Assembly: GCA_963575745.1 (NCBI GenBank) | Contig: CAUYUJ010000148.1 | Span: forward strand, 124,001 to 188,000 | Length of the DNA stretch: 64,000 nucleotides | Reading direction: 5' to 3' | DNA from: Prorocentrum cordatum | Taxonomy: Eukaryota | Part shown: one piece after another, positions 797 through 26,667 of the stretch | Layout: each line of letters begins with the position of its first letter | How positions within the stretch are numbered: the first letter of the stretch is position 1 | Notes under the pieces: model-generated | The model's database searches: none | What the model saw: only the letters and a program-made list of their open reading frames with translations | What the model was told of the DNA's origin: nothing | Program-made: the position numbers and the translations under genes

Positions 797-1171
797 TCAG
801 CCGGCCACCTCAGCCTGCAGTTCGGCGGCCCAGGCAAAGCGGTCCCCGCCGAGGGCGGTTCGCAGCTGCCGCGCCTTGGCGCGGTGCAGCGCGACGTTGA
901 GCTCAGCGGCCCAGCGCTGCGCCAGGGCGCTGGCCACCGCCGCGGCGCGCTCCTCGTCCACCAGTTCCGCTTGGTCCCGCGCGAGCTGGCGGCGGTAGCG
1001 CAGCGCCGCCCTGCGGGGCCCTGCCGCGCCGCCCGCCTGTTTCAACAGCAAGCGGCGCCAACGGTCAGGGGCAGCGGGCCTCGGGGTACCGCCGCCTCTC
1101 GTCGGCCTCGGCCGCGGCGTTGACCGCGCCCTCGCGCTGGGCCGCGGCGCCCAGCCCGTCGGCGTCTCCGG
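797..1171 (-). pseudogene. 3' end of a decayed RLE-type (CRE/R2-like) non-LTR retrotransposon ORF, downstream half of the split LINE
   Basis: Minus strand reads PGDADGLGAAAQREGAVNAAAEADERRRYPEARCP*PLAPLAVETGGR, then after a frameshift QRWAAELNVALHRAKARQL. This resembles the 'P.avEt.GR ... ls.al.r.nA' tail of restriction-like endonuclease LINEs. Confidence 0.7.
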
Positions 1172-1216
1172 CTTACTCAGCCACAGTGGTATTTTGGAAT
1201 GCTTGGGGCGGGCGGG
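1172..1216 (+). repeat. Left terminal inverted repeat
   Basis: CTTACTCAGCCACAGTGGTATTTTGGAATGCTTGGGGCGGGCGGG, preceded by CCGG. Confidence 0.93.
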
Positions 1217-1617
1217 ACATAAACAGCGGGGTGTTTATTTGGGAACGTGAAAGCGACTTCTCCAGAGGCAGAGGGCTTAATCGAAACATCAATTTAAGCA
1301 ACTCCTCCTCATCATCGTCGTCCTCCTCCTCCTTCTCCTGTTGCTCCTCCTCCTTCTCGTCCTCCTCCTCCTCCTCCTCCTCCTCCTCCTCCTCCTCCTC
1401 CTCTTCCTCCTCCTCCTCCTCCTCCTCCCCCTTTCAGCTGCAATGTTTGCGCTGTAGGTTCTGCCCCACTCACGGTAACAGCGCAAGTTTCTTGGAGGCC
1501 GAGGGAGCAGCAGCAGACAGATTCCCAGGAAGAGTTTCGACGAACGCACGTAGCGCTCAGGGCCACTTAGGGGCTTGAGGCTTGGGCCCCAAGGGGGCCT
1601 CCCCCTCCTCATCCTCC

Positions 1618-1638
1618 TCCGTAGCAGATCTACTCAAG
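1618..1638 (+). other. Degenerate spliced-leader relic upstream of ORF 1696
   Basis: TCCGTAGC-agatcta-CTCAAG: both SL ends are intact and the middle has diverged. Confidence 0.55.
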
Positions 1639-1695
1639 TTGTCAAGCAGTTCCTCTGTTCGGCTTTGAGTGCGCGAGATCGTACGCCTTTCCGCC

Positions 1696-2472
1696 ATGCC
1701 AGTGGTGGACTCCCGCAGCGCGACGCCATCGGCTGAGCAACCGCCGCCCGTCGCCGTCTACCTCAAAAACTTCAACGTATGGTACACCATGGACTTGGAA
1801 GTGCAGGAGAACTCGACGCTCGATAACCCGCTTCGTTTCCCTGTGATCCAGGCCAAGGAGCAGCTGTGCTTGCGCTTCAGCTGCTTTACTACCCCCGAGA
1901 AGGTGAATTTCGCCCGGTGCTCCGGACAGCGCGGCGCTGACCCGATTGGTGGCGCGCCGCTCGACAAGGATGGCTACGTGCTCTACACTTCTTGGTTCAT
2001 GGCGTGGGAGGACAACGGCAGCACCCCCGACTCGTCGTCGCATGACCACCTCGGCTCTAGCGGAGGCTCTGTGAACTACCGTCGCGGCCACGCTGGCACC
2101 GGCACTGTCAGCTCCATCGACGACGACGACGCGTCCCAGAGCGACCTCGAAGCCTACGTCCGCAGCCCCACTCAGACTCAGGCTCAGCGCTATGTCCAGC
2201 CTCCAGGGGACCGCCGTGCGTTCATTCAGGTCATGGTCTACGTGGAGGCGTGCGACGAGTGGGCCACGTTCGTCTTGCCCAATGCAACCCCGCCGACCAT
2301 CAAGGAACTCAAGATTGTGGTGGTGGGCAACATTCCAGACCCCGACCTCACGACGGACCATCTCGTCATCTGTACCATCGTCGATGGCCGCAAGTCCGAC
2401 GAGGTGCACGATCACACCCTGGTCTTGGACAACAAGCCGTGGCACATGGTGAGCTTGGAGGACGTCCAGTAA
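1696..2472 (+). CDS. Element cargo ORF, 258 aa, unknown function; possibly two ubiquitin-like (beta-grasp) domains separated by a Ser/Asp linker
   Basis: Uninterrupted, compositionally complex ORF with GC-rich third positions and GCCATG start. An SL-like relic lies at 1618-1638. The two halves resemble each other (VAVYLKNFNVWYTMDL...VIQAKEQL / IQVMVYVEACDEWATFVL...TIKELK). The fold is inference. Confidence 0.65.
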   Translation: MPVVDSRSATPSAEQPPPVAVYLKNFNVWYTMDLEVQENSTLDNPLRFPVIQAKEQLCLRFSCFTTPEKVNFARCSGQRGADPIGGAPLDKDGYVLYTSWFMAWEDNGSTPDSSSHDHLGSSGGSVNYRRGHAGTGTVSSIDDDDASQSDLEAYVRSPTQTQAQRYVQPPGDRRAFIQVMVYVEACDEWATFVLPNATPPTIKELKIVVVGNIPDPDLTTDHLVICTIVDGRKSDEVHDHTLVLDNKPWHMVSLEDVQ

Positions 2473-2964
2473 CGTAATAAGTGCTAGCCAGCGCGGCGGG
2501 CGATGCTGCCCAGCCGGCGCATGCAGCGAAGGGCGGGCGCGGCATTTTGCGTCTGAGCCCTTGCTTGCGAGCAAATCATTTTCCTCCGCCCTCTTTTTTC
2601 TCCTTCCCCCTCCTATCCATTCCAGGTATCCCCCATCCTCCTCCTCCTCCTCCCTCTCCCCGTCCCCCTCCTCGTCCTCCTCCTTATCTTCCTCCTCCTC
2701 CTATTCCTTTTCACTCTCTCTTCTTGCGTATGTACGCTACCCCTCTCACCTCCCATCGCCCCCTCCTTGGCAATCCGTGCTCGCCCTCCTCCCGTTCCCT
2801 TCTCTTCGGAGTCCAGGGCCCTGGGGGACGTCTTGGATCCAGGGTCCTCGGGAGGGCCCTGGAATCTTCTGAGGTCCCCAGGGGATTTCTTCTCGGCGCC
2901 CTCGGGGGCACGCTGAAATGGGAGGGAGACGACGGCGAACAGGGGGAGGAGGACGGGTGGGTGG

Positions 2965-3135
2965 AGGAGGAGGAGGAAGAGGAGGAGGAGGAGGAGGAGG
3001 AGGAGGAGGAGGAGGAGGAGGAGGAGGAGGAGGAGGAGGGGAGGAGGAGGAGGAGGAGGAGGAGGAGGAGGAGGAGAGGAGGAGGAGGAGGAGGAGGAGG
3101 AGGAGGAGGAGGAGGAGGTAGAGAGGAGGAGTAGG
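2965..3135. repeat. (GAG/CTC)n microsatellite, representative of many such tracts (e.g. ~140-265, 1305-1430, 9000-9160, 17945-18290, 36400-36470, 43260-43400)
   Basis: Direct reading. These tracts explain most poly-E/R/G/S/P/L ORFs in the six-frame track. Confidence 0.95.
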
Positions 3136-3809
3136 AGAGGCGTAGGAGGGGGAGGGTGGGGGAGGAGGGGGGGCAGGAGGTAGAGGAGGAGGGGGAGGAG
3201 CAGCAGCAGCAGCAGCAGCAGCAGAAGTTTTCGCGCGCCCTCGGCCTCTGGAGGCCGTTTTTGAGGTCGCAGGGGGTCGGACCGCCGCCGCGACCGTCGC
3301 CGCCGTCGTCGTCGCCGCCGCCTGTCGCCGCCGTCCTCGTCGACGCCGCCGTCCCTGGCCCCCGGCGGCGGGGTGCGGCGGCGCCGCCTTGGCCACGAAG
3401 CGCGGCCGCCGCCACGGGGGGGCGGCGCGCGCGGGGGGGCCCTCCTCCTCCTCCTCCTCCTCCTCCTCCTCCTACTCCTCCTCCCTCCTCCGCCCCTCCT
3501 CCTCTCTCCTCCTCCTCCTCCTCCCCCCTCCTCCTCCCCTCCCCCCCCCCCTCCTCCCTCCTCCTTCATCCTCGTCCCCTTTCTGATCCTCTCCTTCTCA
3601 TCCTTCGCCCCCCCCCTCTTCAAGCCCTCTCGACGGCGCTGGAGCGATGAGGGGGGGGGGGGGGGGGGGGGCGGAGGAGGCGATGAAGATGCGCGTGTGT
3701 TTTTCCATGGTGAGCTCATGGCCCAAGAAGTCCTACAAATGTCTGCGTGTTAACCACGAGTGACAATCCCGATTCACAGGCAACACAACTGACAAGGTCA
3801 GGCCTAACT

Positions 3810-4232
3810 TTAGTAGGGCATCCAACCACGCGTCATTCTCCTAAAAGCCACTATGCCCCATCTTGTGCGGCTAGCCTCACCCTGGCATTCGCTGAACATT
3901 GCCCTCGGACAGGTAGTCTTGACGTACTTACAGCACCTGATGCAGACGAGGATGTTTTTCATCTCGTTTCTGTTGTTGTCGCGGACTGCGGCAGCCCGGA
4001 GCTCGTGCGTCGGGTGAGCATTGGACACGATCCCGCGACGATAGATGTCTTCGTCGTCGTACTTCAGGCAAGATTGCCACGACTGTGGCAAGACGAGGCC
4101 GTTGCCCAAGTTGTTGCCGCGAAATCCCTCGGCGTCCTTAGGCGACCCCGGGCGATTTGGGTCTGACACGAGACTGTGTGGCGAGCTCGGGCGGCCCGAA
4201 GGATTGAACGGCAAATGATACAGCATTGACAT
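3810..4232 (-). CDS. Small cargo ORF (140 aa) with HxxH...CxxC...C putative zinc-binding motif
   Basis: HPTHEL...LVCIRCCKY...FSECQG...GWMP. A weak SL-like relic lies at 4279-4300. Confidence 0.4.
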   Translation of the reverse strand: MSMLYHLPFNPSGRPSSPHSLVSDPNRPGSPKDAEGFRGNNLGNGLVLPQSWQSCLKYDDEDIYRRGIVSNAHPTHELRAAAVRDNNRNEMKNILVCIRCCKYVKTTCPRAMFSECQGEASRTRWGIVAFRRMTRGWMPY

Positions 4233-4803
4233 TGCTGTGCTGGCCCTGGTTGTGAGGTTGGAGAAGAGCGAAACACAAAGAAAGCTAAAACAGCTATGAT
4301 GGGACGCGATGCCGATGAGATGGCAACGACGATGCTGCGGTGAGGAGGGAGGTGACGCGGCGACCTCGGGCCGATCGGCTTCATTGATGGGGCCGCCGGG
4401 GGGCCCGACCCCCTGGCGGCCTCAAAACGGCCTCCCGAGGCCGAGTGCGCAAGCAAAAGCTCTGGAGGTTTCAACGAGGTCCTTTCCTCCTCCTCCTCCT
4501 CCTCCTTCTCCCCCCATCTGCTCCTCTTCTGCTCATCCTCCGCCTCCTCCTCTCCAGCCCGTCGTCCTCCAGCCCTCTGGCCAGCGGCTGCCCTCCTCGT
4601 AGGCGCCTTCAATCCACGCCCCCCCCCCCCCCCCCTCTCTTCATCTGTCTCAGACGCCCGAGGGGGGGAAGAGGGGCACTGGAAGGCCCCGCCCCCCAGC
4701 GGAGGAGGCGGAGGTGGAGGGGGCGGAGGGGGGGGGGAGATAGTAGGAGGAGGAGGAGGGAGAGAGGACGAAAAGGAGGAGGAGGAGGAGGGGGCCAGGA
4801 ATG

Positions 4804-7800
4804 ATTTTTTAGTTCGCCGCGCACCCCCCAACGTCTACACGCTGAACGAACTTGAGGAAATCCCACCAGTCCAGCACGTGCCTTGCGACTGCAGGCGTTA
4901 AGGCTGGCTTTACAACCTCAGCCTCACGCTTCGTCGCTAGCCCCGATACACGCGCCTTTTTTTTGCCTCAGCTTTCGCCCTCTCGAAAGCGTCAGGGGGC
5001 CCTAATAAGGTCCACTGGCTTTGGGATTCGCCTGCGATGTTGCGCACCAGATCTGATAGGCGAGGGTTCGCAGCTCTGAAACGGTCGGACACCCGCACTT
5101 GTCGCAGCATACTGACTGCTGAGATGCACGAAATCACAGGCCCTGAACGCACGCCAAGGACAACCTCAGGCGTGCAGACAATACCACCTCGCAACACAGC
5201 GGCGGCCAGAATGTGATTGCCTGGGTCGGCTGGGTCGCTCACAACGAAAATGTCGGGAATGGTGTGCACACCGAACACGTTAGAACTCTCGACGCCACCA
5301 CTGCGAAGCTTTCTTCTGACAGGGCTGATCTGCGAGGGAGTCATCTCAGCCTCAGCGAAATAACAAAGCCCCCCCTTCAGCTGCGATATCGGCGGCAGGC
5401 GGCCACCTTCGACCTTCTTGTCTAAAGCCGCTTCCCTGTTGACCCGCTTGACTGCGAGGCCCCTCAAGTGCGCGCCGTAGTCGGTGGCCTTTGCCCGGAG
5501 GGATGGATCGGCATCAGCTTCCTCGTCGGTCAAGTGGTTGCTCAGGTGCGCCTCGAACCTGAACTTGGTAGCCTTCTGCGCCTGGAACGCGGCTTCCTTC
5601 TGGTGGCCATCGGTCCAGCTGGGGTCACCAGCAGTAGCTCCAGCACTCTCAATCCACGATGTCGAAGAGCGAGGCATCGCCAAAGCGTCCACGACGACCT
5701 TTTCCACGGCCGCCTTCCGTTTGCGAAGCCACGCCGTCGGTGTATTCGTTGACCCAGAGTTGGATGACCTACATGCCTTCCACTTGTCTACTGCTCCATC
5801 CCTGCTAACGCCGTAACACGAATTCCACACTTCTTGGGCTCGCTGGGCAATGCACAGGACTGAAGGTGTATCCTTAGGCCGATCGACAACCAATTTGATC
5901 TCATCGCATTCTGTCGATTCTGTCCCGTGCAATCTCCTGTCTCCGAAAACCCACATGCACTTTATGAAATCTTGTTCAATTCTTGAGGCGCAAGCTTTGA
6001 ATGTACTGAAGCGGTACAACAGCTTCTTCAGCTCATCATTCGAGGTTCGACAATCGGCGCTCTTGTTCATGGCATCTGACTTCGAAACGGCAAACTTCCA
6101 GCCATCGAGATTGGAGCAGTCCTCAGAATTCACGCGGGACTGGGCTGTTCGCCAATGAGAACCGAGCTGGGCCTTAAGCGCGGCCCCATCAAGTTTCAAT
6201 GCGCGTGCCAACTTTTTGATGTGGTGATCCCGACTGGCAATCGAATTTACACTCTCCCTAGCCCGCTGCTTCTTGAAGGAATTGCCCAAGCTCAATACAC
6301 AGAAACTTTGCAGCAACTCGAACGCAGGGTACTCAGCTTTGACAACCTGAATACAAAGTTTAACCCGCCGCCCCAGATGGCGCAAATTGTTCGTCACTAC
6401 ATCCATTGGAACACCCCCCCCCCGATTGCCCACTGCGTTGAACTTCCCGTTGCGCATCGGCAGTGTAACTGGATTGTTTTCAAGGTGTCCAACATGAACG
6501 AAGTGTAGCTGGTAATCGTCGTGATCGTGCCCTCTTGGTACAATTCGATAACCCGAATGAGAAAGTAGTACACGTCCGAGTTGATCTCGGCGGCGTCGGC
6601 GGAGTCAAAGTCGCCAGCTCATCGAGCAAATTCCAAGCCGTCGTCGGCGGCGTCAGCCATCATGCTCAAGAGCACCGCCTTGGACGTCGCGATAGTTTCG
6701 ATGAATGCCACGGCGTGGTGGGCGTCTGAGGACGTCCTCATGATACGCGCGTCGCGCGCCGTCAGGCAGAGCGGGGCGAACCAGAGCACCCACCTCACGA
6801 CGCGATCAAACCAGCCGTTGCCACCAAACTGTTTCTAACACACAACAAAAACCTTAGAGCCCGGGAAGGAGGCGGAGGAGGAGGAGGCGAAGGCGAAGGA
6901 GGAGGAGGGGGAGGAGTACTAGGACCCCATGCCCGCCACGGGCGGCCCGCCCCCTCCTTCGCCCCCTCCTCCCCCTTCCGCCGCCCCCTCTCCTCGTCCT
7001 CGAGTCTTCTTCTCCTCATCCCCGTCCTCCTCCTCTCCTCCTCCTCCTCCTCCTGCTCCTCCTCCTTCTCCCAACTCAACGTTATTGTGTTTCCCCTCCC
7101 CCCATGGGAGTTGCGTGGCATGGCTGGTTCTCCCGCGACTGGCGTGGCCCCCCACGGGCGCCGCATAGCTCTCGAAACGGTGTTTCGCTGAATGGAGACT
7201 CATCAGTGAAGAGTTGTTCCGCTTGAGCCCCTGGTCAAACTGGTCGCGCCGGTGGGTGACCAGATTTCGCAACACCAGCGAATGGTCGATCTTTTGAACG
7301 AATCTGTCCTTGCGAGTAAGGAAGAACTGGATCATGGCATTTATCTGGTCGTCAGCTTTCCAGGGTCTGCTCAACATCCTGGGGCGGGGGCGACGACGAC
7401 GACGGCGGCGGCGGCGGCGACGACGACGACGTCGACAACGACGACAACGACGACGATGACGACGAAGACGACGAAGACGACGATGACGTCGACGACGGCA
7501 ACGACGATACGACGAATACCATGCTGGCGACAACGAAGGTGTGAGGCGCCCCGTCGCCGTTGCTGATACCGCTCCCCCATCTCTCCCTGGGGTTTAGCGC
7601 TTTTGGGGGGTATTTCGGGGGACCTTCATTCAGCGCTGTCATTCATCGCCGTCGTCGTCGTCGTCGTCATATCATGATTTCATTTTACCCTCGTTAGTCC
7701 TTCTTGCTGCATGAGCTTTGTCCCTGACCAAAGCCTCCACGTTCGGCGCGATCGGGACGTTCCCGTTCGGCGGGTCAATCATGTCCCTAACTGATGCCAC

Positions 7801-8775
7801 CTCGTCAGACGCAGAGTCCGCGCAGACCATCCTGATCTGCTTCTTTATGTTCTCCAAGATGAAGGGCTCTAGCTTGCTCTTGGGCTCCGAACCTGGTTCT
7901 CGACGTGGAGGGCCGTGACTATTCACCGTGGCAATTCGTTCGATGATGTCTGAGGTTGCTGCTGCAATGGCAGGTGCTCCAGACCCGAGGTGTTTACGCA
8001 TGCCAAGGTGACCATGAAGCGCGTTCAACTCGGGGTCGCAGGCGCAGAACCGAACGGACAGGCGAGCGTGACGCTCGTCCCGAAATATGGCGATGCAAGT
8101 GGCTCGAGACAAAAACTCTCGGTCGCGTCGCCTCAATGCCTCGGCAATACACCAAACCATCTTTTGAAACTTGTGTTGGTGGCCAACATGCTCGATTCCA
8201 GCCCTCAGAGCAGTTCCTTTGCAGATCGTGTCCCACACCTTCACCAACATGTCTGCTGGGGGCGCTCCAATAACGACATTGCCAGTGGGGCCCGTGATAC
8301 CGCCGTGCTCTTCCAAGTATTTTCTGGTAGCGGCCTGGCGTTGCTTAGTACGGTGATGTTTCCTGAGGTTCACCAACTGCAGAGCATCGCTGGTTGTCAC
8401 GGCACAGGCGCCGCACGGACCTGGCGCCTGCGCTGCTTTGCAGCACACGCACCCCAACCCCCATTCACCAGAGGAACTGACGTGCCCAATCATCCATGTA
8501 GCAGGGACGATGCCGAGCATATTACAACCCAAATCACTATGGATCGCCAGCTCTCTGGTCCATTGGCGCTCGTGGCTGATGTACTTGCATCTGGCGCAAC
8601 CAGGGTTTTTGCAATATCTGTGATGAATGATATCATCTGCCAGCCCATGCCGCTGGTTGCCCTTGTCAAGTCGTTCCACCATGTGGGCCAATATTCGCGC
8701 CCGCCTGGCCCCAGTGACGCACAACCGGCGAGACCGCTTAAGATTCTTAGGGATCACATGTCGGTGCAACTCCAT
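4804..8775 (-). pseudogene. Intron-containing hAT-like DDE transposase with N-terminal Zn-finger-like and C-terminal BRCT-like regions; disrupted
   Basis: Exon 1 (8775-7700) has CKNPGCARC, GCVCCK..LRKHH, FRDERH, CADSASDE and RDKAH. Intron 7699-7379 is GA..AG. Exon 2 (7378-~7150) has MLSRPW and KHRFES, equivalent to the hAT RW-x-S motif. Exon 3 starts at 6793 and has ASRIEQDF, equivalent to ERxFS. Lesions: TGA at 6621-6619, frameshifts in the G10 run (6414-6423) and A run (~4960), and a damaged exon-2 donor. The 3' end is approximate. Confidence 0.75.
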
Positions 8776-8808
8776 GCGTGGGGCAGAGCGACAAACAAGA
8801 ATTGAATT

Positions 8809-8830
8809 ACTGAGCCAAAGCTGCTGCGGA
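8809..8830 (-). other. Degenerate spliced-leader relic upstream of the transposase
   Basis: TCCGCAGCAGCTTTGGCTCAGT, 16/22, ending 34 nt before the ATG at 8775. Confidence 0.65.
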
Positions 8831-9223
8831 CATCACCATCATCATCACATTCATCGTCGCCATCATCATCGTCCATCCATCACCCTACGAAGACCCCCCC
8901 TCCTTGCGCGAAGCTCCAGTGAGCGAAAAAACAGGGGATTCCACCCTGCCCGCCCCCGCTCCTCCAGCCTCCTCCTCCTTCTCTTCCTCCTCATCGAACC
9001 TCCTCCTCCTCTTCCCTCCCTCCTCCTCCTCCTCCTCCTCCTCCTCCTCATCTCCTCCTCCCTCCCCTCCTCCTCCTCTCTCCTCCTCCTCCTCCTCCTC
9101 CTCCTCCTCCTCCTCCTCCTCCTCCTCCTCCTCCTCCTCCTCCTCCTCATCCTCCTCCTCCTTCTCCTGCGTCCCCAGGCGCGAACTGCGGCTCCAGTGG
9201 AGCGAGACCCAGCCCTATGCAGT

Positions 9224-9612
9224 GAGCTACCACACCTCTCAACACGACCGCGCGCGCTACCACGCCTCTCAACACGACCGGTCGTTCAGGAATTCTCGGG
9301 CGTCCCTCTGAACAGGACCGGACGTTCAGGAATTCAAGGTCGTCCTGGCCTCTGAACACGACCGGACGTTCAGGAATTCCTGAACGTCCGGTCGCGTTGA
9401 GAGGTATATCCTCCTCCTCTTCCTCCCTTTTCCTCCCTCCTCCTCCCTCCTCCCTCCTCCCTCCTCTCTGTCGCCCTCCCTCCTCAGCTCAAATTCCTGA
9501 ACGTCCGGTCGTGTTCAGAGCCCTGGAAGCCAGGAGCCAATGAATTCCTGAACGTCCGGTCGTGTTCAGACGCCTGGCGACCGTGAGTTCCTGAACGTCC
9601 GGTCGCGTTGAA
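9224..9612. repeat. Mirror-symmetric array of a ~30-bp unit (CTCTSAACACGACCGGACGTTCAGGAATTC): 4 forward and 4 reverse copies centred on GAATTC
   Basis: Forward copies at ~9236 (partial), 9266, 9306 and 9350. Reverse copies at 9374, ~9491, 9542 and 9585. A 56-bp near-perfect palindrome spans 9349-9404. Confidence 0.9.
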
Positions 9613-9719
9613 GGGCGGGATGCTTAAATGTGAGCTTTCTCCGGAGACGAGCGTTTAAGTTGCTAGACTTCTCAGTAACCTCGCGGCCCCTTCGAGGCCA
9701 TCCTCCAAGTCCCATAGGC

Positions 9720-9935
9720 GGGCCTGTTGAGCCAGAGTGGTAGCGCTACCACCCTGGCTCAACGCGACGGGAGCTCCCGTCGTGTTCACTACCACGCCTG
9801 GTGGACCCAGGCCACTCTCGAACCCTGACCTCAGTCGCGCTGGCCAGCGTGCGAGGCGCGTGGTAGTGAACACGACGGGAGCTCCCGTCGTGTTGAGCCG
9901 CGGTGGTAGCGCTACCACTCCGCCTCAACAGGCCC
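9720..9935. repeat. 78-bp inverted repeat with 60-bp spacer; arms built from nested palindromes
   Basis: Arms at 9720-9797 and 9858-9935 each contain the palindromes GTGGTAGCGCTACCAC and CGACGGGAGCTCCCGTCG. They share AACACGAC and GCTACCAC motifs with the 9224-9612 array. Confidence 0.9.
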
Positions 9936-10469
9936 ATTGGCTGATCTTGAGATGGCCAACAGCCAACGGCCTGACGTCAGCCATGTCTTTATCTTGAGGC
10001 TCTCTTCAGAAGGCGATCCTTATCTGCGGCGGCTGTCCAGGGTCTGAGGAAGGAGGAAGGAGAGGAGGGAGGAAGGAGAGGAGGAAGGAGGAAGGAGAGG
10101 AGGAAGGAATGAATATGTCTGCTTGTTGCTGCGACGGTGGGCCGAGCTTGATTGGCTTCAGCTCTGGCCCTCAGCTCTGTTGTCGAACAGACACCTGGCA
10201 ACTAACTGCTGCACTGCCCTACCACTATGGGCCAGCCCGCATGCGTCCACGCGTGAGTAGGCACACTCGAGTCAAGCAACGCGTTGGCAGTCTGCTTCTT
10301 CAAACGCTGCGGATCCCCCGCAACATCTCATGACGCATTCGACGACAAGCGTCGCACTACAACCAACTCCTAGGTGCATAGAGTGTGTTCTGCAATGCCA
10401 GAAAGCTACCAGATGCCTGAAAAAAACGAGCTCAAGAGCGTGGTCGACCTGACGATGAGGCAATTCCGT

Positions 10470-13400
10470 TCATTCGACGTTGCTCAGAAGGCTGGCCAAG
10501 GCACCTGCTGCGGACCCGCTGGCGCCAGCATCGACACCGTCAGCGCCGCCGTCGGCACCCTCACTGCCGCTTTCGTCGCCCTCCTCGGCGGCGAACGCTT
10601 CTGCCAGAGGTCCCGCGCCGGACTCCGCAGCGGTCTTGGCGTGGGCTCTCTTCTTCGCCTCAGCTTTTGACTTCCGCTTCGCCGCCGCCGCAGCCTTCTT
10701 AGCCTCAACCTCGATCTTGCGCGCCTCCTCGGAGTTGGGGCCATCGCCCTCGTTCGTCTTCCCAGCCAAGAACCTGGCGTAGTTTGCGTGGTAGTGCTTG
10801 TGGCCCTCCGTCTTCATCATCACCATGAACTCCTTCACGAGGTGGGCCATTAACATCTGCTTGTGCTCTTCGTTCTGGAAGCAGATGCCCAGGTACCCGA
10901 TGCCCTTCCCGACGCAGTGGGGCGAGAAAACGCCACCGCCTGGCGTCAGATCCATGACTACTTTGGCGTAGTAGCTCGTCGTCAGCTCCTGGTAAAACTC
11001 CTTCGGCAGCTGGTGCCAGTTCACAGGCTCCGCACACACGTTCTTCTGAATGCCGCCGCTGCCCCTGCCCCCTCCGGCGATCTGGATATTGAGCTCTGGC
11101 TTGGGGATCTGCGCGTGGTTGCGGGTTGCGACGCCGTCCTCGTCGCCGCTCCCCTCGCCCTCGTCTGACGCATCTTCAGTGTCGATAGTTTTTCCACCCG
11201 CTGGCTTGCGGTTCGGACCGAGGAACTTCTTTTTGTCCTCGAACGGCAACTTCCAGCTGTCGTCCCACGACTCGTAGGTGATGGGGCCCATGGTGTCCCC
11301 GTTGTTGGGGCCAGGGTAGACGGCGCGCTTCTTCTCTGGGGTGACTGTGTCGATGGCGCGGTAGAAGTGAACGGTCTGGAGCTGCTTCAGAGACGAAATG
11401 CCCCGAACCAGAGCTCGACGGCCCTTCAAACTATCCTCGTCGAGGAACATGTGGGTCATGTTCCTCGCGACTCCCTCTGCCTGGCACGCGCTCTTCCAGC
11501 GACCCCTCCCTGTGACCATGATCTTGTTGATGACGCCCCCGGCGCCTCGCGTCGAGGATCGACCGCGCCCGCCTTCAAAAACTCACGACATCAAAAACTC
11601 GCCAGATTGAAACCCTGAAACCCGAAAGACAAAAACACACAGAGTCCCTGAGAGGCCCCGGGGGGATGGCAGGTGTTCGGTCTATCCGCGTACCTTTCTT
11701 GCCTCCGTCCAAGTACATGCACGCGCCCCCCTGGCTGAGGCGCCCGCTGTCATGGCCACCCCTGCGCCTGGCACTGATCACAGAGTTGAACAGCCGACCC
11801 AACTGATCCTTCCGGAAGGGCGCAGCACGAAGATGAGGCGCAGTCACCGGCTCGCCACTCAGCGTAACGCCCGCGTGGACAAGGATATGGCCTGTCATGT
11901 CGCCCTCCTCCATGCCGAGCGTAGTTTGCGCGATAGATGCCTGCAATGCTGCTTCGCTCTTCCCAGAGTCAGAGATCAGCTTCACGTAATCGGAGACCTT
12001 CTTCTGTGCGAACCTCAAGTACCACGCATCCACTGCGCCCTTGTTCCCTGGATCTTCAAGCGAGGCGGTGAAAGTCTGGGTCAAGGCTGGATCCCCCTCC
12101 TGACCTGCTGACAGCCGCGTGCGCTTCCTCGCTGGCCCCCCCTCGGCTTCCACCTTGTCGATCTCCTCGTCCTTCTTGGCCTTCTCAGCGTCATCAGCTG
12201 TCTGGCACTCCCAGACCTTGTCGATCTCCTCCTTATTGCCAGCGTGCTCCAACGTCTCCTCGGTGGACTTGCCCTTCCGGCAGCAGTAGCGCAGCTGCTG
12301 GTCGTACCCCCTCCCGAACGCGAGCCCCTCCGTCAATTCGAACATCGCCTTCTCGGAAGTCACTGCGCTAACCTTCCAATTGCTGTCGACCTCGATGTCA
12401 CCGGCCAGCGGCTCCACTTTCGTCCTGTACAAACGGTGTGAACTGAAAACTTCCTGGACAAACGCTTGCAGTTTGGGAGACCTGTACACCGCCAAAAACT
12501 CCCCATGCGTCAAGAACTCCCGGAGCTCTTTCTTGAACGCCAGCACATCAATCAGGCCCTTGTTGCCACCGATACCATCTTTCAAGTTCTTGAGCGTGAT
12601 CTCTCCGGTGTGCATGGCGCCAGACTCGCAGAGATCTATGATGCCGTTCAAAACCCAGTTGATCATCTTCTTGTCCTTGTTGCACCTCGAGACAATCAGG
12701 CTCAGCTTGTATACGCTCTCGAAGGGCCCCGATGAACCCCACTTAAGGGTTGCCATCCGGATGGCTGCGAGGTTGGGTTCGTACTTGATGGTGAGATCGA
12801 CGACAGACGACGCCGACTCGATGAAGGTCTTCGTGATCGGCTCCGCTTTCGAGTTCAACGCGATTTCCTTCTTGTACCACTCGAATAACGTATCGTTAGA
12901 GATCTTCTTTTCCTTGCCGCCGGTACCCCCAAGCCTTGCAAGTTTGGACCTGGTCTGCATAACCTTCGGGGCGCCACTGAAAACTGCCGCCACCGCCTGA
13001 CGTGACACACCCCTCGGGCCCGCTGACGAGGCCCCTGGAGCCCACAAGGGCTCACCCCCAAAACCCAGAGACGCACCGTTGCTGTCGAGGTGGCGGTGGC
13101 GTTTCTTTCAGCGATGCCCAGAGCCTCGCAGATACGCTGGAGCGTGTCGCGCCCGACAGCGGTTGCCTCTGACATGACCTGCTCCCTGAGGTTGATGCTG
13201 CGGGACCACGCTGTATCATCCTTGGCTTTGTGGACCTCAAACTGGAATGTCGTATTCAAGATATCCTTGCGGTACCCCTCGAGCGTCTGCTCCGATGCGC
13301 CATGCTCGATCGCGTCTTTGATGGCCAGCAGGCGTGCAAAGAAAGGTTCCTCTGGCGACAGGCGCTCCCAGTTGCCAGCGTTGGTCACGGGGTTGATTGC

Positions 13401-13797
13401 GGGGTCATCCGCGGCAGCCACGACGACGCCAACGTAGAGACCAGGCTCCCGGAAGCACGCGTGTTTCAGCTCCTGGATGTACGTCTCGTTGTAGGGAACG
13501 CCACCGTGGAAGGTGAAAAACAGGTTCCGGTTCCACTCGCTGGATGCGCACGTGTGCTTCTGAGTTCCGTTGGTCAGATCGTACTGGTACCTCTCCATGT
13601 TGAAAGCTGGCTGCGCTGGCCCCTTCCAGAAGACGGTGTCGAGCGCCTTCATCGCCCGCCGCGATCGGCTTGAAAACCTCGTGCTGCTTGACAATGTTCA
13701 TCGCAGACGTCACGTGAGCGATGAACTCCGCGTTGATGTTGTCAACGGGGTCAGCACTCAGCCTCGCCAGCTGTCCGACAGCCACACTTTCCGCCAT
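10470..13797 (-). pseudogene. Three-exon gene (~1000 aa) with putative ParB-like N-terminus, acidic linker and beta-class N6A/N4C methyltransferase-like C-terminal fold; one frameshift near 13660
   Basis: Exon 1 is 13797-13125 (GC donor). Exon 2 runs from 12996 or 12963 to 11694 (GT donor). Exon 3 runs from 11545 or 11572 to 10470. All junctions are phase-compatible with AG|G acceptors. The C-terminal WHQLPKEFYQEL...VMDLTPGGGVF...GIGYLGICF resembles the beta-class HP..KP...vlDpF.GsG...gr.yiGiE pattern. No DPPY motif was seen. Confidence 0.65.
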
Positions 13798-13874
13798 GAC
13801 ACAATGACTGCGTGGTGTACAAGTACTGAGACTCAGAGTGTCAAAGCGAAAGCTCAGAAACAGCCGAGCTCAAG

Positions 13875-13896
13875 CTGCGGCCAAAAGGGTCACGGA
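13875..13896 (-). other. Degenerate spliced-leader relic upstream of the ParB/MTase-like gene
   Basis: TCCGTGACCCTTTTGGCCGCAG, 16/22. Confidence 0.6.
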
Positions 13897-14407
13897 GGAG
13901 GTGGAGCAGTGGAGGGGCGGAGATGGGTGAAGAGAGTTGAGGAAGAAGGGAAACGGGAGTGATGGCCCTGTTGAGGGTCCCACGAGGACCTCGTTTGTGA
14001 AGAAGTCAGCTTCTCCCCTCCTCCTCCTTCCCTTCCTCCTTCTCCCCCTCCTCCTCCCGCGCATCCTCCCCCCGCACCTCCTCCTCCTCCTCCTCATCAT
14101 CATCACCACCATCATCCTCCTCCCCCCTGCTGCTGCCGGCGGATTTCGGGGATTGGTTCCGGGGCGAGAAGATCACTCGAGGGACGGGGTCGAGAGCTTA
14201 AGAACGCCGTAAAGACAAGGCCCCGCGGCTCGAAATCCACGTGGACAGATGAGGTCGAGAGCCATTGATGACGATGATGATGATGATGTGATGATGCTGA
14301 TGATGATGTTGTTGCGCTTTTTATGTTCACTCTATGGCAGTCACTTGCCCCTGCGCGTCCTGCGTAGCTGTACCTGCGCCGGCGCTGACTGACCACGCGA
14401 GTTTAAT

Positions 14408-15648
14408 CTACACCAGCGCGCCCCGGGACGCGACGATGCCGATGTGGCCGAGGACGCTTCGCACCAGCGGGCAAAGCGCGTTCACAGACATGGCGTTGCC
14501 CATCATGCGCCCCGCCCTCTGCTCGCTGACTTTCGCCTTCTCGAGCAGGTCGGCCTTGAAGTACCCGGCGCTGTAGCCTTGCAGCTGGGCAAGCTCGCCC
14601 ATGGTGACTTGTCTCCCGCGCGGCAGAATCCAGTGCCCCATGATAGCGCCGCGGCTCGCAGTGATCGTCGGGAAGGCACCCACTTTGTAGTTCAGCCTTT
14701 TGGTTGTGCAGCCGATGTCGATAACGATGTCCTTAGCCAATGCCACTCGTAGATCGCACTCGTCAGTGCACCGCTTGGCGAGATCTCTGACACATCCAAC
14801 CACGTTGGCGCGCGCGCGCTCTCCTTGGGAGGCAACCCGTTCGCGATGGCGTCGACCCCCGCCATGGTGGGCATTCCGACGATGTCACGAACCAGCCGGT
14901 GCACGCCGGTATAGGCGGGCCACTTGAACTCCTTCTTGGCTTGCTTCAAGTCTGATCGGAAACCCGCAACGTAGATGCGCTCCCTCTCTTGAGGGATTCC
15001 GAAGTCCGACGTCTTCAGCGCCTTGTAAGAGACCGAGTAGCCGCACTCCTTCAGGCACTTCAAGATGCACTCCCACACCTCTGCGAACTTGTCGGACAGG
15101 ATGCCGTTGACCATCTCCAAGATGAACGCCTTAGGCTTCACCTCCTCGATCGTCTGCACAGTCTGTAACCAGAGTTTGCCGCGATCGTCATGGGGCCCAT
15201 CTCCTTTGCCTCCCTTGGACCAAGGCTGGCACGGCGGCCCCCAGGCGTACAACTCGATGTCCTTCGGGAGCTGTTTGTTGTCGCGCTCCGTGATGTCTTC
15301 ATGGATCCCCGAATCAGGGTCCCCATATAGTTCTTTGAGGAGCCTCCTGCAGCTAGGGTTCTTCTCCGAACTGAAATGCCAGCGGTATGAAAACGATTCA
15401 GCAGTGAGCGCCGCCAAGACCGAGTCGCATCCAGCAAAATCACTCGCATAGGTCACATCCCACGAAGTGTTCTTGGATCGTCGAACCTTCTTCATCGGCT
15501 CCTCCTCCTGGACGCTGGCGGCGGCGGCGGGCCTCTTCTTGACCAGACGCGCGACAGCTGCAGGTCGCATTACAGAAGCCTTGGGACGTGGCACTGGCGG
15601 GGCCGCTGCGTCTTCAGAGTCAAGTTCGTCCTGCCACAGAAACGCCAT
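14408..15648 (-). pseudogene. DNA (cytosine-5) methyltransferase, prokaryote-like single domain; frameshifted in a (GC)6 run
   Basis: Ordered C5-MTase motifs: I SDFAGCD, II SSEK, III EDIT, IV GPPCQPWS, V DDRGKL, VI FILEMV (canonical ENV), VIII GIPQERERIY, IX RQVTMGELAQLQG, X MGNAMSV. Removing one GC unit at 14808-14819 fuses the two ORFs. Confidence 0.92.
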
Positions 15649-15707
15649 CACAATTGTGGGTAGTATGTATGTGCGAGACACAACAATGCAAACGTGAGTC
15701 GCGCTAG

Positions 15708-15729
15708 ACGAGCCATAACAGGCTTCGGA
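15708..15729 (-). other. Degenerate spliced-leader relic upstream of the C5-DNMT
   Basis: TCCGAAGCCTGTTATGGCTCGT, about 16 matches with one gap. Confidence 0.55.
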
Positions 15730-15863
15730 CGGGTGACATGCGATGGATGATTGACGATGATTGACGTGCCCCAAAGGATGTTTTGTTTAACCTTATGTCT
15801 CTGGACAGTTGTCGGGGTGGCCCCTCCCCCTCCTCCTCCTCTTCCTCCTTGGTCCTCCTCCGC

Positions 15864-15885
15864 CCCATAGCCGCTTTGGCTCAAA
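15864..15885 (+). other. Degenerate spliced-leader relic
   Basis: CCCATAGCCGCTTTGGCTCAAA, 17/22. Confidence 0.7.
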
Positions 15886-15938
15886 AAGGTGTCGCCCGCC
15901 GTCGGCGGCTACTGTAATGGTGGTTATTTCCAGCGGCC

Positions 15939-16609
15939 ATGCCGGACCTCCGCCCAGCATTCTCCCTCGGTCGAAAGCCATGCCGCGACCGCAACAGTGG
16001 GCGAGAGGAAAGCCACAAGGACAGCGAGCGCAAGGACAGGGAGCGCGGCAAGGACAGCGAGCGCGGCAAGGACAGCGAACGCAAGGACAGCCACCACCGC
16101 AAGAAGGACAGGGAGCGCAAGGACAGCGCGCGTAAGGACAGCGAGCGCCAGGACAGCGGCCGCCGCAGCCGCGGGCGCAAGGACAGCCGCCGCAGCCGCA
16201 GCGGGCGCAAGGACAGCCGCCTGGCAGCCGCGACGACGGGAAGAGCAGCAGCAGGATGCCGACGACGCCCAAGCGGCATCATCCGCCTGGGGAGCGGAGC
16301 TGGCCAGCGGGGGCGGCGGCGCCGCGTGACGACAGCAGTAGCCCCGGACGTCGTCGTGACCATCGTGGTGAGCAGAGCATTGTCAGCAAGATGAAGATCA
16401 CAGCGAGGCTACACCGCAATGTCAGTTCGAGCCCATTCCGCGGCCCGCTTGGGGAGTGGTCGGGTGGCCAAGATGGCCGCCCTTGCCCTTCGTGGATGGG
16501 TGGCGCCGCGCGGAAACGTCGAATGGAGCTACCTTCGCCGGACCTCGTCAAGTACTTCAGCGACGAGCGTGTGCCACCGCCGCCGCCATCCCCGTCGCCG
16601 AGTCTCTAG
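15939..16609 (+). pseudogene. Arg/Ser/Lys/Asp-rich low-complexity ORF (RKDSE repeats), probably frameshifted near 16225
   Basis: GCCATG start 54 nt after an SL-like relic at 15864-15885. Contains repeated GCAAGGACAG units. Function unknown, and it may be non-coding. Confidence 0.35.
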
Positions 16610-16843
16610 GTCTCTAGCCGTCGAGTTGTTGCCGCCCTGCGCTTTGTACAGCGGCGCGTCAAGAAGATGTTGTCTACGGGCGTTAGATTGAAAAGCTCTT
16701 GCCTGGCATGCTGGCCGTCGTCTCCCGAGGGTCGAAACGCAGGAGGGGGCGGGAGGCCGATGAGAAGGAATGGGCGGGAGGAGGAGGGGGTGTGTGGAGG
16801 AGGGGGCTCGACAACGGGTTCAAATCAAATCCCATGTGTCCGA

Positions 16844-16865
16844 TCTGTAGCCGTTTTGGCTCAAG
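16844..16865 (+). other. Dinoflagellate spliced-leader relic
   Basis: TCTGTAGCCGTTTTGGCTCAAG vs DCCGTAGCCATTTTGGCTCAAG, 20/22. Confidence 0.9.
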
Positions 16866-16874
16866 CCTCTACTG

Positions 16875-17904
16875 ATGCTCACTTGTTTCACAGTGAAAGC
16901 AGGGACCATCACTCTTCTCAGCGAGTCGGCTGCTCGGAAAGCAGCGCGGCGGGCAGCTCGTGCAGCGACGGCGTCTGACGCCGCGATACACCGGTCAAGG
17001 ACGCCGCCGAGGACACGGATCTGTCCACCGCCGAGCCGCCGCCGGAGCCGTCCACCGAGCCGTCTACCGAGCCGTCCACCGAGACGTTCACCAACGCGTC
17101 CACCGAGCCGTCCACCGAGACATTCACCGAGACGTCCACCGAGCCGCAGGACACCGAGGACACAGAGCCGTTCACTGAGCCGTCCCAAGACACCAAGCCG
17201 TTCAAGAACACCGAGCCGTTCACTGAGACGCCCCAAGACAACGATCCGTTCGAGACGTCCCTTCATGGAGGCCGACCCAGTCCAAGACGATCAACTTGCG
17301 AGTGGTGTTATCGAGGTCTTCATTCCAGATACGGAGCCAGGGGGTGAGCATTGGATTGGCGTGAATGGTGGTCAACCCCCAATACGAAGCGACAAACTGC
17401 TCGTGGCCGTCAAAGAGATCGAGTTCCCAGATCTAGACAGGACTAAACTCAATATATCATGGTACAAAAAGGACAAGTACGGCAACGTGGTGATGGGAGA
17501 AGATCTGTTTCCGTTGCGAGTGATGATCCCGAGCGGCTCTAAGGTCATGGTATGGCAGCGAGGACAACCTTACGCGAACCTCGTGTATGATAAAAGGGTT
17601 TCGCGAGTTGCCCTTGTGGCGGCCATCCCCGCCAACCGCCAGCGACGGCTTAGCATTGCCAAGAGGTTCTCTGAGGTCCGCATTCTCCGCCAGCATCATC
17701 CAGAAGCCCCATGTTGGGAAGAAAGCAAAGAAGTGTGCTCATCCAGACTTCTCGTTTCATGTGAATAGCGACAATTCCGTCGGCAAAGGGATGTACTGTT
17801 GCGAGAAGTGCGAGGGCCTGCATAAAGGCGAGTCTTGGGCGCAGAGCAAGAGGGGCAAGCGCCACTACAAGAACTGCGAGCAGATCGTGTTTCGCTCTGC
17901 CTAG
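16875..17904 (+). pseudogene. Cargo gene: RSP-rich N-terminus, globular middle domain and C-terminal Cys/His domain in a second frame
   Basis: ORF 16875-17768 begins 10 nt after a 20/22 SL match. The overlapping frame encodes KCAHPDFSFHVNSD...YCCEKCEG...RHYKNCE to the stop at 17904, implying a frameshift or small intron near 17650-17720. Confidence 0.55.
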
Positions 17905-18427
17905 CGCTGCAGCTGGAAAAATACAGCATCCCCCCTCCTTCCATCAACTCCTCCTCCTCCTCCTCCTCCTCCTCCTCCTCCTCCTCCTCTCCTCCTCCTC
18001 CTCCTCCTCCTCCTCCTCCTCCTCTTCCTCCTCCTCCTCCTCCTCCTCCTCCTCCTCCTCCTCCTCCCCCTCCTCCTCCTGGCGTCCAACCCAAAGAGGA
18101 GCACCGAGACTCCCTAGGGGGTGATAAGGATGAGGCGGCCCATGCGGCGGGGGGCGAGGAGGAGGAGGAGGAGGAGGAGGAGGAGGAGGAGGAGGAGGAA
18201 GAGGAGGAGGAGGAGGAGGAGGCAGAGGAGGAGGAGGAGGAGCCTGAGGAGGAGGAGGAGGAGGAGGAGGAGGAGGAGGAGGAGGCAGGCGCTGAAACGG
18301 GTGAAGCATTCCTTACGTAGTCAGCCTCCATGCACGAGTTTCCCTGGGAAGGTCACGCGCCACCGCCTGTCCAGGGGCGGGGGGCTTATTTCCTTAGCGG
18401 GACGTGGTTTGCTCAGGTGAACTACCC

Positions 18428-18472
18428 CCCTCCCGCCCCAAGCATTCCTAAATACCACTGTGGCTGAGTAAG
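18428..18472 (-). repeat. Right terminal inverted repeat
   Basis: Reverse complement reads CTTACTCAGCCACAGTGGTATTTAGGAATGCTTGGGGCGGGAGGG (2 mismatches to the left TIR). Followed by CCGG. Confidence 0.93.
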
Positions 18473-19410
18473 CCGGGCACAGCATGCCGGACTGTCGCGT
18501 CGAAGGCGCGCGGACGGCCGGCACGCCGCACCCCGAGGTCGAGGATCGCCTCCCCGCGCCGGGCCTCCAGCGGCTGGCCGCAGGCGGCGCAGGGGCCCGG
18601 CTGCTGGTTCGCCGCGCCCGGCGCGTCGCACGGGCCGCAGCGCCGCGCCCGCCGGTCCCGCGCGGGAGCGGGAACTTGGCGGGCCGCGTGGAAGCCGCAC
18701 TCGGCGTGAATGCGCCCCCGCACATCCTCGACATCCCTGCTGCGGGCTTAGGCGCCCCCACCGCAGAGACATCGAAAGGCGTGGCGCGCTTTGTTGCAGA
18801 GCGGCTCGTCGCAGACGCGGCCCACGCGCGGGCCGGTGCGTGCCCGGTTGCTGCAGCAAGCTCCGGGCGGCGCGAGGTGCTGGCCAAGGAACTCGCGGGC
18901 GGTGCTGCAATAGTCCGCGTTGCCGATGCGCTGTCCCGCGGCGCCCGGCGGGGCCAGCTGCCAACCTCCAGCGCGCGGCCCCCCGCAGGAAGCCAGCCTC
19001 GCCCGGTCCTCGCTGGTGCTGGTGCTCCGCAAGGCCATTTAAAAGGTTTTTCTGGCCCAGTCGCCGCGTGAGCTCCTTCTGCACCTTGGTGCGAGGTTGT
19101 TGGGCGAGGCCAAGCGGGCGGGGGGTCCGCTCCCTCCCCTGGCCCACACCAGGGCTGCGGCAGCGCCACCAGGAGGCGCGCGGCCCTGCAGGAGGCCGCC
19201 AAGGGCTGCTCGGCCTCCTCCAAGTCGTCCAGGGCGGCCAAGCCCGTGCGGGCGCGCACCTCTGAGAGGCTTTGCGCCCAGGAGCCGACCCACGCCGCAG
19301 GCGTGAGCTGCTCCTGGCTGCGGAAGCCCCGGCCGCCCAAGCGCAGCGGGAGTCTGCACTGCGCGCGTTGGTGCTCAGTGAGCGGGTCCAGGCGAGTCAG
19401 GACGATTCCA
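18473..19410 (-). pseudogene. Upstream half of the same 5'-truncated, decayed RLE-type LINE (post-RT region, Cys/His knuckle, start of endonuclease)
   Basis: Motifs LPLRLGGRGFRS...AAWVGSWAQ, CDEPLCNKARHAFRCLCGG and EAILDL...AFDATVRHAVP occur across several frames. The reading ends exactly at the right CCGG. Confidence 0.7.
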
Positions 19411-21736: not shown

Positions 21737-23105
21737 TTTCGGCACACCCATCACACGGTTCGTGGCCCCATAGGGAGCTCCACCGAAGCCCCCAGTGGCA
21801 GGGTTCGCATGGCGGCCCCGCCCCATTTTGGCGCACCCCTCACACAGTTCGTGGCCCCATAGGGAGCTCCACCGAAGGCCCCAGTGGCAGGGTTCGCATG
21901 GCGGCCCCGCCCCATTTTGGCGCACCCCTCACACGGTTCGTGGCCCCATAGGGAGCTCCACCGAAGGCCCCAGTGGCAGGGTTCGCATGGCGGCCCCGCC
22001 TCATTTTGGCGCACCCCTCACACGGTTCGTGGCCCCATAGGGAGCTCCACCGAAGGCCCCAGTGGCAGGGTTCGCATGGCGGCCCCGCCCCATTTTGGCG
22101 CACCCCTCACACGGTTCGTGGCCCCATAGGGAGCTCCACCGAAGGCCCCAGTGGCAGGGTTCGCATGGCGGCCCCGCCTCATTTTGGCGCACCCCTCACA
22201 CGGTTCGTGGCCCCATAGGGAGCTCCACCGAAGGCCCCAGTGGCAGGGTTCGCATGGCGGCCCCGCCCCATTTTGGCGCACCCCTCACACGGTTCGTGGC
22301 CCCATAGGGAGCTCCACCGAAGGCCCCAGTGGCAGGGTTCGCATGGCGGCCCCGCCTCATTTTGGCGCACCCCTCACACGGTTCGTGGCCCCACAGGGAG
22401 CTCCACCGAAGGCCTCAGTGGCAGGGTTCGCATGGCGGCCCCGCCCCATTTTGGCGCACCCCTCACACGGTTCGTGCCCCATAGGGAGCTCCACCGAAGG
22501 CCCCAGTGGCAGGGTTCGCATGGCGGCCCCGCCCCATTTTGGCGCACCCCTCACACGGTTCGTGGCCCCATAGGGAGCTCCACCGAAGGCCCCAGTGGCA
22601 GGGTTCGCATGGCGGCCCCGCCCATTTTGGCGCACCCCTCACACGGTTCGTGGCCCCATAGGGAGCTCCACCGAAGGCCCCAGTGGCAGGGTTCGCATGG
22701 CGGCCCCGCCCATTTTGGCGCACCCCTCACACGGTTCGTGGCCCCATAGGGAGCTCCACCGAAGGCCCCAGTGGCAGGGTTCGCATGGCGGCCCCGCCTC
22801 ATTTTGGCGCACCCCTCACACGGTTCGTGGCCCCATAGGGAGCTCCCCGAAGGCCCCAGTGGCAGGGTTCGCATGGCGGCCCCGCCTCATTTTGGCGCAC
22901 CCCTCACACGGTTCGTGGCCCCATAGGGAGCTCCACCGAAGGCCCCAGTGGCAGGGTTCGCATGGCGGCCCCGCCCCATTTTGGCGCACCCCTCACACGG
23001 TTCGTGGCCCCGTAGGGACATAGGGAGCTCCACCGAAGGCCTCAGTGGCAGGGTTCGCATGGCGGCCCCGCCCCAGTGTGGCGCACCCCTCACACGTTTC
23101 TTGGC
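21737..23105. repeat. 89-bp tandem satellite, ~15 copies
   Basis: Unit CCCCATAGGGAGCTCCACCGAAGGCCCCAGTGGCAGGGTTCGCATGGCGGCCCCGCCCCATTTTGGCGCACCCCTCACACGGTTCGTGG, head-to-tail, near-identical, no unique spacers. Confidence 0.97.
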
Positions 23106-25061: not shown

Positions 25062-25096
<35 letters not shown>

Positions 25097-25097
25097 C

Positions 25098-25136
<39 letters not shown>

Positions 25137-26630: not shown

Positions 26631-26667
<37 letters not shown>

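Follow-up and report, generated by a model that had tools for sequence, protein, structure and literature searches.

A putative 17.3-kb transposon with a hAT-like transposase gene and a predicted C5 methyltransferase gene, inserted at CCGG in a dinoflagellate retroelement

Few characters of a transposon superfamily are as stable as the length of the target site duplication, since this length mirrors the geometry of the strand-transfer complex. Duplications by hAT elements usually comprise 8 bp, and those of hAT5, hAT6 and hAT7 comprise 5, 6 and 7 bp, respectively (PMC12730594). Together with P, MuDR, Kolobok and Dada, hAT forms the C/DxxH group (PMC9587614). Duplications of 4 bp that are specific for CCGG, combined with inverted ends of 40 to 270 bp, are given as the hallmark of Ginger1 (PMC2836005). 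Dinoflagellates show extreme CpG methylation, and retrotransposons bearing DNMT genes are already known from them (PMC5890265). The present study deals with a 17.3-kb insert in the dinoflagellate Prorocentrum cordatum, which carries a hAT-like transposase gene and a predicted C5 cytosine DNA methyltransferase gene, is bordered by inverted ends and CCGG, and interrupts a copy of a long interspersed nuclear element (LINE). It lies in a stretch of 64,000 nucleotides of contig CAUYUJ010000148.1 (positions 124,001 to 188,000), which is referred to below as the window; all coordinates are those of the window.

The insert resembles hAT elements in its transposase, which has an N-terminal CxxC..H..H finger followed by D, D, [C/D]xxH, a long insert and an E within S-x-x-E-x-x-F near the C-terminus. 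Weak matches to Dimer_Tnp_hAT, below the curated cut-off, and the nearest named clusters in a feature search, which are derived from hAT and Buster, point the same way. It differs from hAT in a duplication of at most 4 bp, seen in one insertion and outside the range of 5 to 8 bp (PMC12730594). The length of 17 kb with a methyltransferase, the inverted ends of 45 nt and a long conserved C-terminal extension of the protein are further differences. Spy elements (PIF/Harbinger-ISL2EU-Spy) insert into the middle of a palindrome. Harbinger relatives with 0-bp duplications are recorded (PMC12730594), which is a likeness to the present locus, whereas the transposase found here is of another superfamily. 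Mobile elements carrying modifying enzymes comprise the DNMT-bearing LINE and DIRS retrotransposons SymbioLINE-Dnmt and SymbioDIRS-Dnmt3 of Symbiodinium (PMC5890265), the virus-borne Mariner-1_OLpv, which encodes a C5 methylase (PMC3627910), and fungal transposons, hAT7 included, with TET/JBP (PMC12730594). The insert is like these in being a putative mobile element with a gene for an epigenetic enzyme, and differs from them as an inverted-end transposon with a hAT-like transposase and a prokaryote- or phage-like methylase in a dinoflagellate nuclear genome.

We consider the region 1172-18472 to be one cut-and-paste transposon with its own hAT-leaning transposase of the C/DxxH group, a stagger of at most 4 bp and a methyltransferase as passenger, and assign a probability of about 0.6 to this explanation. 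A transposon with inverted ends of 45 nt would have entered a LINE copy truncated at its 5' end, the LINE being of a type with reverse transcriptase and a C-terminal nuclease-like motif. It would have been moved by the transposase that it encodes, a protein of about 1000 amino acids carrying a CxxC..H..H finger at its N-terminus and then D, D, DxxH and E, and this enzyme would come from a large uncharacterised dinoflagellate family in the C/DxxH group, whose weak affinities are closest to hAT. The cuts that join the element to its target would have a stagger of 4 bp (CCGG) or 2 bp (CG), or none at all (blunt), and not one of 8 bp. The lineage would carry a C5 methyltransferase of prokaryotic type as a long-standing passenger.

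The inverted ends were complementary at 43 of 45 positions without the adjoining CCGG; counting CCGG, the pairing comprised 49 positions with 2 mismatches. A 23-nt terminal word was found only at the two ends within the 64-kb window, with 0 occurrences expected from 100 shuffles, and a 17-nt inner word was likewise confined to both ends, with none in the shuffles. Mirrored trinucleotide arrays, (CTC)n on the left and (GAG)n on the right, were located about 130 nt inward of each end. Every long complex open reading frame (ORF) inside the element was on the minus strand. The G+C content of the window was about 60%, and a scan of the window with Rfam yielded no family. In a comparison with sequencing runs, one DNA run had a share of 0.27 of words in common, and no RNA run was listed. 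CCGG occurred 204 times in the window and was thus 2.5 to 3 times rarer than GGCC (563), GCGC (626) and CGCG (516); the ratio of observed to expected CpG was about 0.9.

According to the initial annotation, joining the flanks with a single CCGG gives HAVPGDAD on the minus strand, and this was borne out. The right flank ended with ...TVRHAV, the left flank started with GDADGL..., and the one retained CCGG contributed a complete proline codon to the join, along with the first two bases of the codon for glycine. As all six frames remained open across the join (125 to 452 amino acids), continuity of the frame alone is worthless, and uninterrupted relatives of the host sequence were therefore sought as an independent test. 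The right half of the flanking sequence (90 amino acids) matched the uninterrupted relative P0173 (500 amino acids) with an E value of 8.3e-28 and 68% identity. The right half corresponded to residues 289-379 of P0173 and the left half to residues 381-414, with identity at 27 of 34 positions in the latter; only P380 lay between them. Both halves could be aligned in 10 of 13 relatives, and when unaligned query ends were counted, a spacing of one residue was obtained in all 10, six of which had V-P-G at the junction. One or both halves were unaligned in the remaining three relatives (P0183-P0185), which were uninformative on the spacing.

Because one residue separates the flank halves in all 10 relatives, with no extra residues at the junction, the reconstructed pre-insertion site has exactly four bases between the flanks, which is compatible with a single CCGG, and at most 4 bp were duplicated. 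The absence of an 8-bp duplication, as stated previously for this locus, was also seen directly, as the 8 bases outside either possible end were not direct repeats. On the strength of these alignments an 8-bp duplication is excluded for the insertion 1172-18472, as is a later deletion removing one. CCGG is identical to its reverse complement, so that a genuine ambiguity exists between a 4-bp CCGG, a 2-bp CG and a blunt CC^GG geometry, and the 4-bp, 2-bp and 0-bp readings are indistinguishable. The element would have the ends G...C under the 2-bp reading and GG...CC under the blunt reading.

The host had been described as a LINE with restriction-like endonuclease (RLE), split in the endonuclease region. 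This agreed with its relatives, in which reverse transcriptase is followed by a C-terminal nuclease-like motif, the nuclease being recognised at the level of motifs. When longer proteins were sought with P0173 as the query, 12 matches were obtained, and RVT_1 (PF00078) was listed for all 12 in a precomputed table. In the three long relatives scanned with hmmscan, RVT_1 was located in the middle of the protein, and neither an AP endonuclease (Exo_endo_phos) nor any other domain was found in these three. Three motifs that lie downstream of a Cys-rich stretch, E-E-A-x-L-D, D-V-T-V and E-x-x-K-x-x-R-Y, are conserved among the relatives and can be read, at motif level, as a nuclease of the PD-(D/E)XK type. 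The predicted architecture of the host relatives is that of RLE-type LINEs. No Pfam match was obtained in the ORFs of the flanks or in P0173 itself, and the feature search with P0173 gave leads only (zf-RVT, 0.88; RVT_1, 0.87). The copy in the window began at residue 71 of P0173 (about position 19400) with no reverse transcriptase before it, and contained frameshifts and one stop. Judged by these defects, it is a decayed, 5'-truncated dead LINE on the minus strand. A second copy of the host retroelement was not detected in the window by blastn or tblastx. An unrelated second retroelement fragment was located at 55525-56238 on the plus strand (RVT_1, E value of 1.9e-16) and had no similarity to the host LINE.

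Within the element, ORF 7675-8832 matched two proteins of 1000 amino acids, P0001 and P0002, with 46 to 48% identity. Relatives of P0001 among 1.84 billion representatives numbered 2413 at E<=1e-3 and 335 at E<=1e-30. All named members were from dinoflagellates of the Symbiodiniaceae (Symbiodinium sp. CCMP2592, Durusdinium trenchii, Breviolum minutum and an MMETSP transcript), and single sequences of the family recurred on as many as 30 contigs. In an alignment of 35 members, C37, C40, H68, H74, D162, D247, D278, D410, D423, E518 and E627 were invariant and H281 was conserved at 97%. The order of the family motifs was a CxxC..H..H finger, D, D, DxxH, a long insert and an E in S-T-S-x-x-E-Q-x-F, and a long conserved C-terminal extension was a further feature of the family. 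The presumed catalytic residues D162 and D247 were separated by 85 residues and D247 and E627 by 380 residues, and the same residues were present in the window copy. The spacing of D, D and E in Hermes is similar. All family motifs were kept in the window copy of the transposase. It is probably inactive, because an in-frame TGA interrupts a conserved block and the frame changes twice, near 6480-6493 and 4952-4964.

Assignment of the family to a superfamily was attempted with 102 members. The Pfam model zf-C17orf113 matched 18 of them (best E value of 1.1e-7) and Dimer_Tnp_hAT (PF05699) matched two, with E values of 0.0036 and 0.0083, both below the curated cut-off. Pfam models of other transposase superfamilies gave no match among the 102 members. 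The named neighbours in the feature search were the C17orf113 cluster and several clusters derived from hAT and Buster, with scores of 0.80 to 0.84 that have the rank of leads. No conserved Cys/His cluster was present between residues 281 and 627 of the 35-member alignment, in which H352 and C500 reached only 80%. The two long transposase ORFs of the window gave no match to solved structures. The hAT-like motifs of the transposase given in the initial annotation stood, as they fit the group of hAT, P, Kolobok, MuDR and Dada; the signals for hAT itself were weak, the matches being below threshold or leads only. The suggestion of a distinct lineage, though not that of a different mechanism, was supported: the family has 2413 representatives and shows the motifs of the hAT/P/Kolobok group. 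We read the family as a deep branch of hAT-like character within the C/DxxH group; membership in hAT is not established.

The methyltransferase gene was located upstream of the transposase gene in the element. ORF 14695-15786 matched PF00145 with an E value of 5.7e-43 and TIGR00675 with an E value of 2.2e-36, and a second block carried motifs IX-X. The catalytic Pro-Cys and motifs VI, VIII and X were present (PCQ, E-M-V, Q-x-R-x-R and G-N-A-M). The closest solved structure was that of M.HhaI (E value of 7.5e-20), ahead of DNMT1, and phage methyltransferases had at most 32% identity to the element enzyme. The predicted enzyme is a C5 methyltransferase of prokaryotic type, closest to prokaryotic and phage enzymes. 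In the element enzyme and its relatives, motif I lacked the second glycine and had an acidic residue instead (F-A-G-C-D, F-S-G-L-E and F-S-G-L-D), and motif VI was E-M/Q-V and not E-N-V in the element enzyme and its dinoflagellate relatives. A PF00145 domain preceded the transposase in one of the 35 aligned members, P0029 (CAE7607080.1, Symbiodinium sp. CCMP2592), and the two were also joined in P0238 and P0240, which are gene models of Durusdinium trenchii. These three proteins matched both genes of the window, with order and strand preserved. The genes of the two taxa (CAE7607080.1 in Symbiodinium sp. CCMP2592, CAK9011439.1 and CAK9010976.1 in D. trenchii) lie on contigs of 0.6 to 1.6 Mb. 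Across the three dinoflagellate sources, the identity was 24 to 37% for the methylase and 24 to 32% for the transposase. This conserved pairing argues for an old passenger gene and not for a chance neighbour.

The connection between the ends and the transposase was examined within the element and in relatives. No high-complexity inverted repeat of at least 13 nt bracketed the transposase inside the element. A scan for inner ends of 8 nt with an 8-bp duplication gave one weak candidate, 4303..13316, with one mismatch, against an estimated 0.2 or so expected, which places it at about chance level; it would cut ORF A, one of three further ORFs described below. No rve or other integrase was detected in 14 long and 78 further ORFs of the element, a scan which left out 30 ORFs of low complexity (70 to 129 amino acids) and about 19 mostly low-complexity ORFs of at least 130 amino acids. 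As no inner inverted repeat brackets the transposase and no integrase-like ORF was found, we infer that the outer 45-nt ends are the only candidates for the ends of the transposase, the link being positional. Further copies of the ends were found neither elsewhere in the window nor in viral contigs (0 matches), and five matches in prokaryotic genomes were no more than an 18-mer is estimated to give by chance in 596 billion bases. Transposase relatives were absent from viral contigs. Twelve metagenome loci of transposase relatives (1.4 to 7.4 kb, with two pairs representing the same locus) had no bracketing inverted ends or duplications on their short contigs. The contig of one relative, L005, ended at 3504-3557 in a perfect palindrome of 27+27 nt with CCGG in the central region, which may be a fold-back of the assembly at an element end.

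The explanation of the locus as a single transposon moved by its own transposase was weighed against several others. One holds that an ordinary transposon with short duplications and no sequence preference met a palindromic 4-bp target, which makes its ends look longer. We rate this as possible, though not likely. In its favour, palindromic 4-mers occupy 6.0% of the positions of the window, so that such an event is not rare, and one insertion was seen. Against it, CCGG takes up only 0.32% of the positions, and none of the other three palindromes made of G and C is as rare (204 against 516 to 626), although this argument is post hoc and weak. An unlikely explanation is that the transposase is a relative of Kolobok whose 4-bp palindrome shifted from TTAA to CCGG. 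The common C/DxxH motif, the 4-bp palindromic target with TTAA duplications and the 5'-RR..YY-3' termini of Kolobok, as well as duplications of 3 to 5 bp in KolobokP (PMC9587614), would suit this, as would the GG..CC ends of the element under the blunt reading. However, the target is TTAA there and CCGG here, and the internal zinc finger is absent from this family; as the stretch from DxxH to E has no conserved cluster of Cys and His, only Kolobok1, which according to the source is alone in lacking it, would be comparable (PMC9587614). The weak Pfam and feature-search matches also favoured families of hAT type, in a library without a Kolobok model.

The ends and CCGG may also have come from a transposon of another type, such as a non-autonomous carrier resembling Ginger1, with the transposase and methyltransferase as cargo or as a nested dead element whose own ends are no longer recognisable through decay. 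The inverted ends of the element are within the size range of Ginger1, and its CCGG flank corresponds to the 4-bp duplications of the latter, which are CCGG (75%) or CCGT (PMC2836005), although the duplication length is ambiguous here and known from one insertion; the broken state of the window transposase would fit as well. We nevertheless regard this explanation as improbable, since the element starts with CTTAC after CCGG and not with TGTNR, and the Gypsy-integrase-like transposase of Ginger1 (PMC2836005) was not seen in the ORFs scanned for rve. For a nested element there was only the single weak inner candidate mentioned above, which disrupts ORF A. It is hardly credible that the 8-bp duplication of a canonical hAT insertion was deleted later. 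Nothing beyond the hAT-like motifs speaks for it, no repeat is formed by the 8 bases adjoining either candidate end, and the deletion would have had to restore both the frame of the host and the exact residue spacing of 10 of 10 relatives. A more far-reaching proposal is that the transposase represents a new superfamily-level branch with BED finger and DxxH, widespread in dinoflagellates and specific for CCGG or CpG with short or zero stagger, whose own methyltransferase would couple methylation of the site to target choice, immunity or self-silencing; we consider it quite improbable.

Several observations weigh against the explanation preferred here, namely one cut-and-paste transposon moved by its own hAT-leaning transposase. 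A single copy was examined, and neither the duplication length nor a preference for CCGG is established from one insertion. The inverted ends are tied to the transposase by position only, and the transposase in the window carries a TGA and two frame changes. The affinity to hAT is weak: no Pfam hAT model reached the threshold, only 4 of the ten best named feature-search matches shared a family with the first, and the family profile gave nothing at E<=10 against solved structures. The termini of the element also lack the typical hAT start. The methyltransferase-transposase joins in other genomes are predicted gene models and may represent mis-merged neighbours.

If true, joining by a hAT-like enzyme at 4 bp or less within a palindrome would widen the known range of 5 to 8 bp and offer structural studies a naturally occurring contrast. 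More interest attaches to the unannotated family of transposases, with the methyltransferase conserved as its cargo, than to the single CCGG. The family is large, but for want of a Pfam model it has remained unseen in annotations of dinoflagellates, in which its members bear the name of the attached methylase domain or no name at all. A transposon lineage with a conserved methyltransferase passenger would give mobile elements a third, independent way of introducing methylases into dinoflagellate genomes. A literature search, which did not cover subscription journals and Repbase reports, revealed no description of this transposase family, no hAT-like element with a CCGG flank and no DNMT-carrying transposon with inverted ends in dinoflagellates. 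The features of the locus are compiled in Table 1.

Table 1. Features of the element and the interrupted host retroelement, with positions in the window
Feature	Position	Strand	Remarks
3' half of host ORF (nuclease-like C-terminal end to stop)	800..1167	-	tblastn of P0173 367/411-500 onto 1208..800
Left CCGG (target copy, or half)	1168..1171		
Left terminal inverted repeat, 45 nt	1172..1216	+	complementary to 18428-18472 at 43/45; unique in window
Subterminal (CTC)n array	1302..1432		mirror of right-hand (GAG)n
Transposase gene	4830..8508	-	about 5 blocks: 8508-7699, 7377-7150, 6792-6478, 6493-4952, 4964-4830; tblastn of P0001, 31-46% identity
Transposase motif ASRIEQDF	5966-5989		
In-frame TGA within conserved transposase block	6619..6621	-	
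Transposase motif SAKHRFES	7168-7191		
Transposase motif RDKAHAARR	7699-7725		
Transposase motif CADSASDEV	7798-7824		
Transposase motif FRDERHARL	8059-8085		
Transposase zinc finger	8428-8454		
Coding-looking ORFs A, B and C	10473..13697	-	overlapping; A 12858-13697, B 11578-13107, C 10473-11582
C5 cytosine DNA methyltransferase (predicted)	14420..15456	-	two blocks: 15456-14950, 14815-14420
Methyltransferase motif GNAM	14483-14503		
Methyltransferase motif PCQ	15217-15240		
22-nt stretch resembling dinoflagellate spliced leader	16844..16865	+	followed by plus-strand ORF 16851-17765
Subterminal (GAG)n array	18156..18285		
Right terminal inverted repeat, 45 nt	18428..18472	-	
Right CCGG	18473..18476		
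5' half of host copy, truncated before reverse transcriptase	18477..19400	-	tblastn of P0173 71-381 onto 19400..18472

Between the methyltransferase and transposase genes the element contained the three coding-looking ORFs A to C. Their G+C content was 0.71 to 0.79 at the third codon position (GC3) versus 0.45 to 0.52 at the second position (GC2), and they gave no match in Pfam, NCBIfam, PHROGs or PDB beyond rows at chance level. The GC3 of the methyltransferase was 0.74 to 0.79 and thus similar to that of ORFs A to C, while that of the transposase was 0.61 to 0.62. In view of this difference, the cargo and the transposase may have different histories. The plus-strand ORF 16851-17765 had the reverse orientation relative to every other gene of the element, and its C-terminal 150 amino acids were protein-like; no family match and no structure match beyond chance level were obtained with it. 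It follows the 22-nt stretch that resembles the dinoflagellate spliced leader, and 16844-17765 may be a retroposed or captured gene.

Outside the element, 15.4 copies of an 89-bp unit (97% matches) formed a tandem array at 21736-23106, just beyond the host retroelement. Arrays of (GTA)n were present at 25032-25218 and 26599-27895, with up to 427 units, and owing to these long arrays the G+C content dropped locally to 0.40 and the GC skew reached +0.46.

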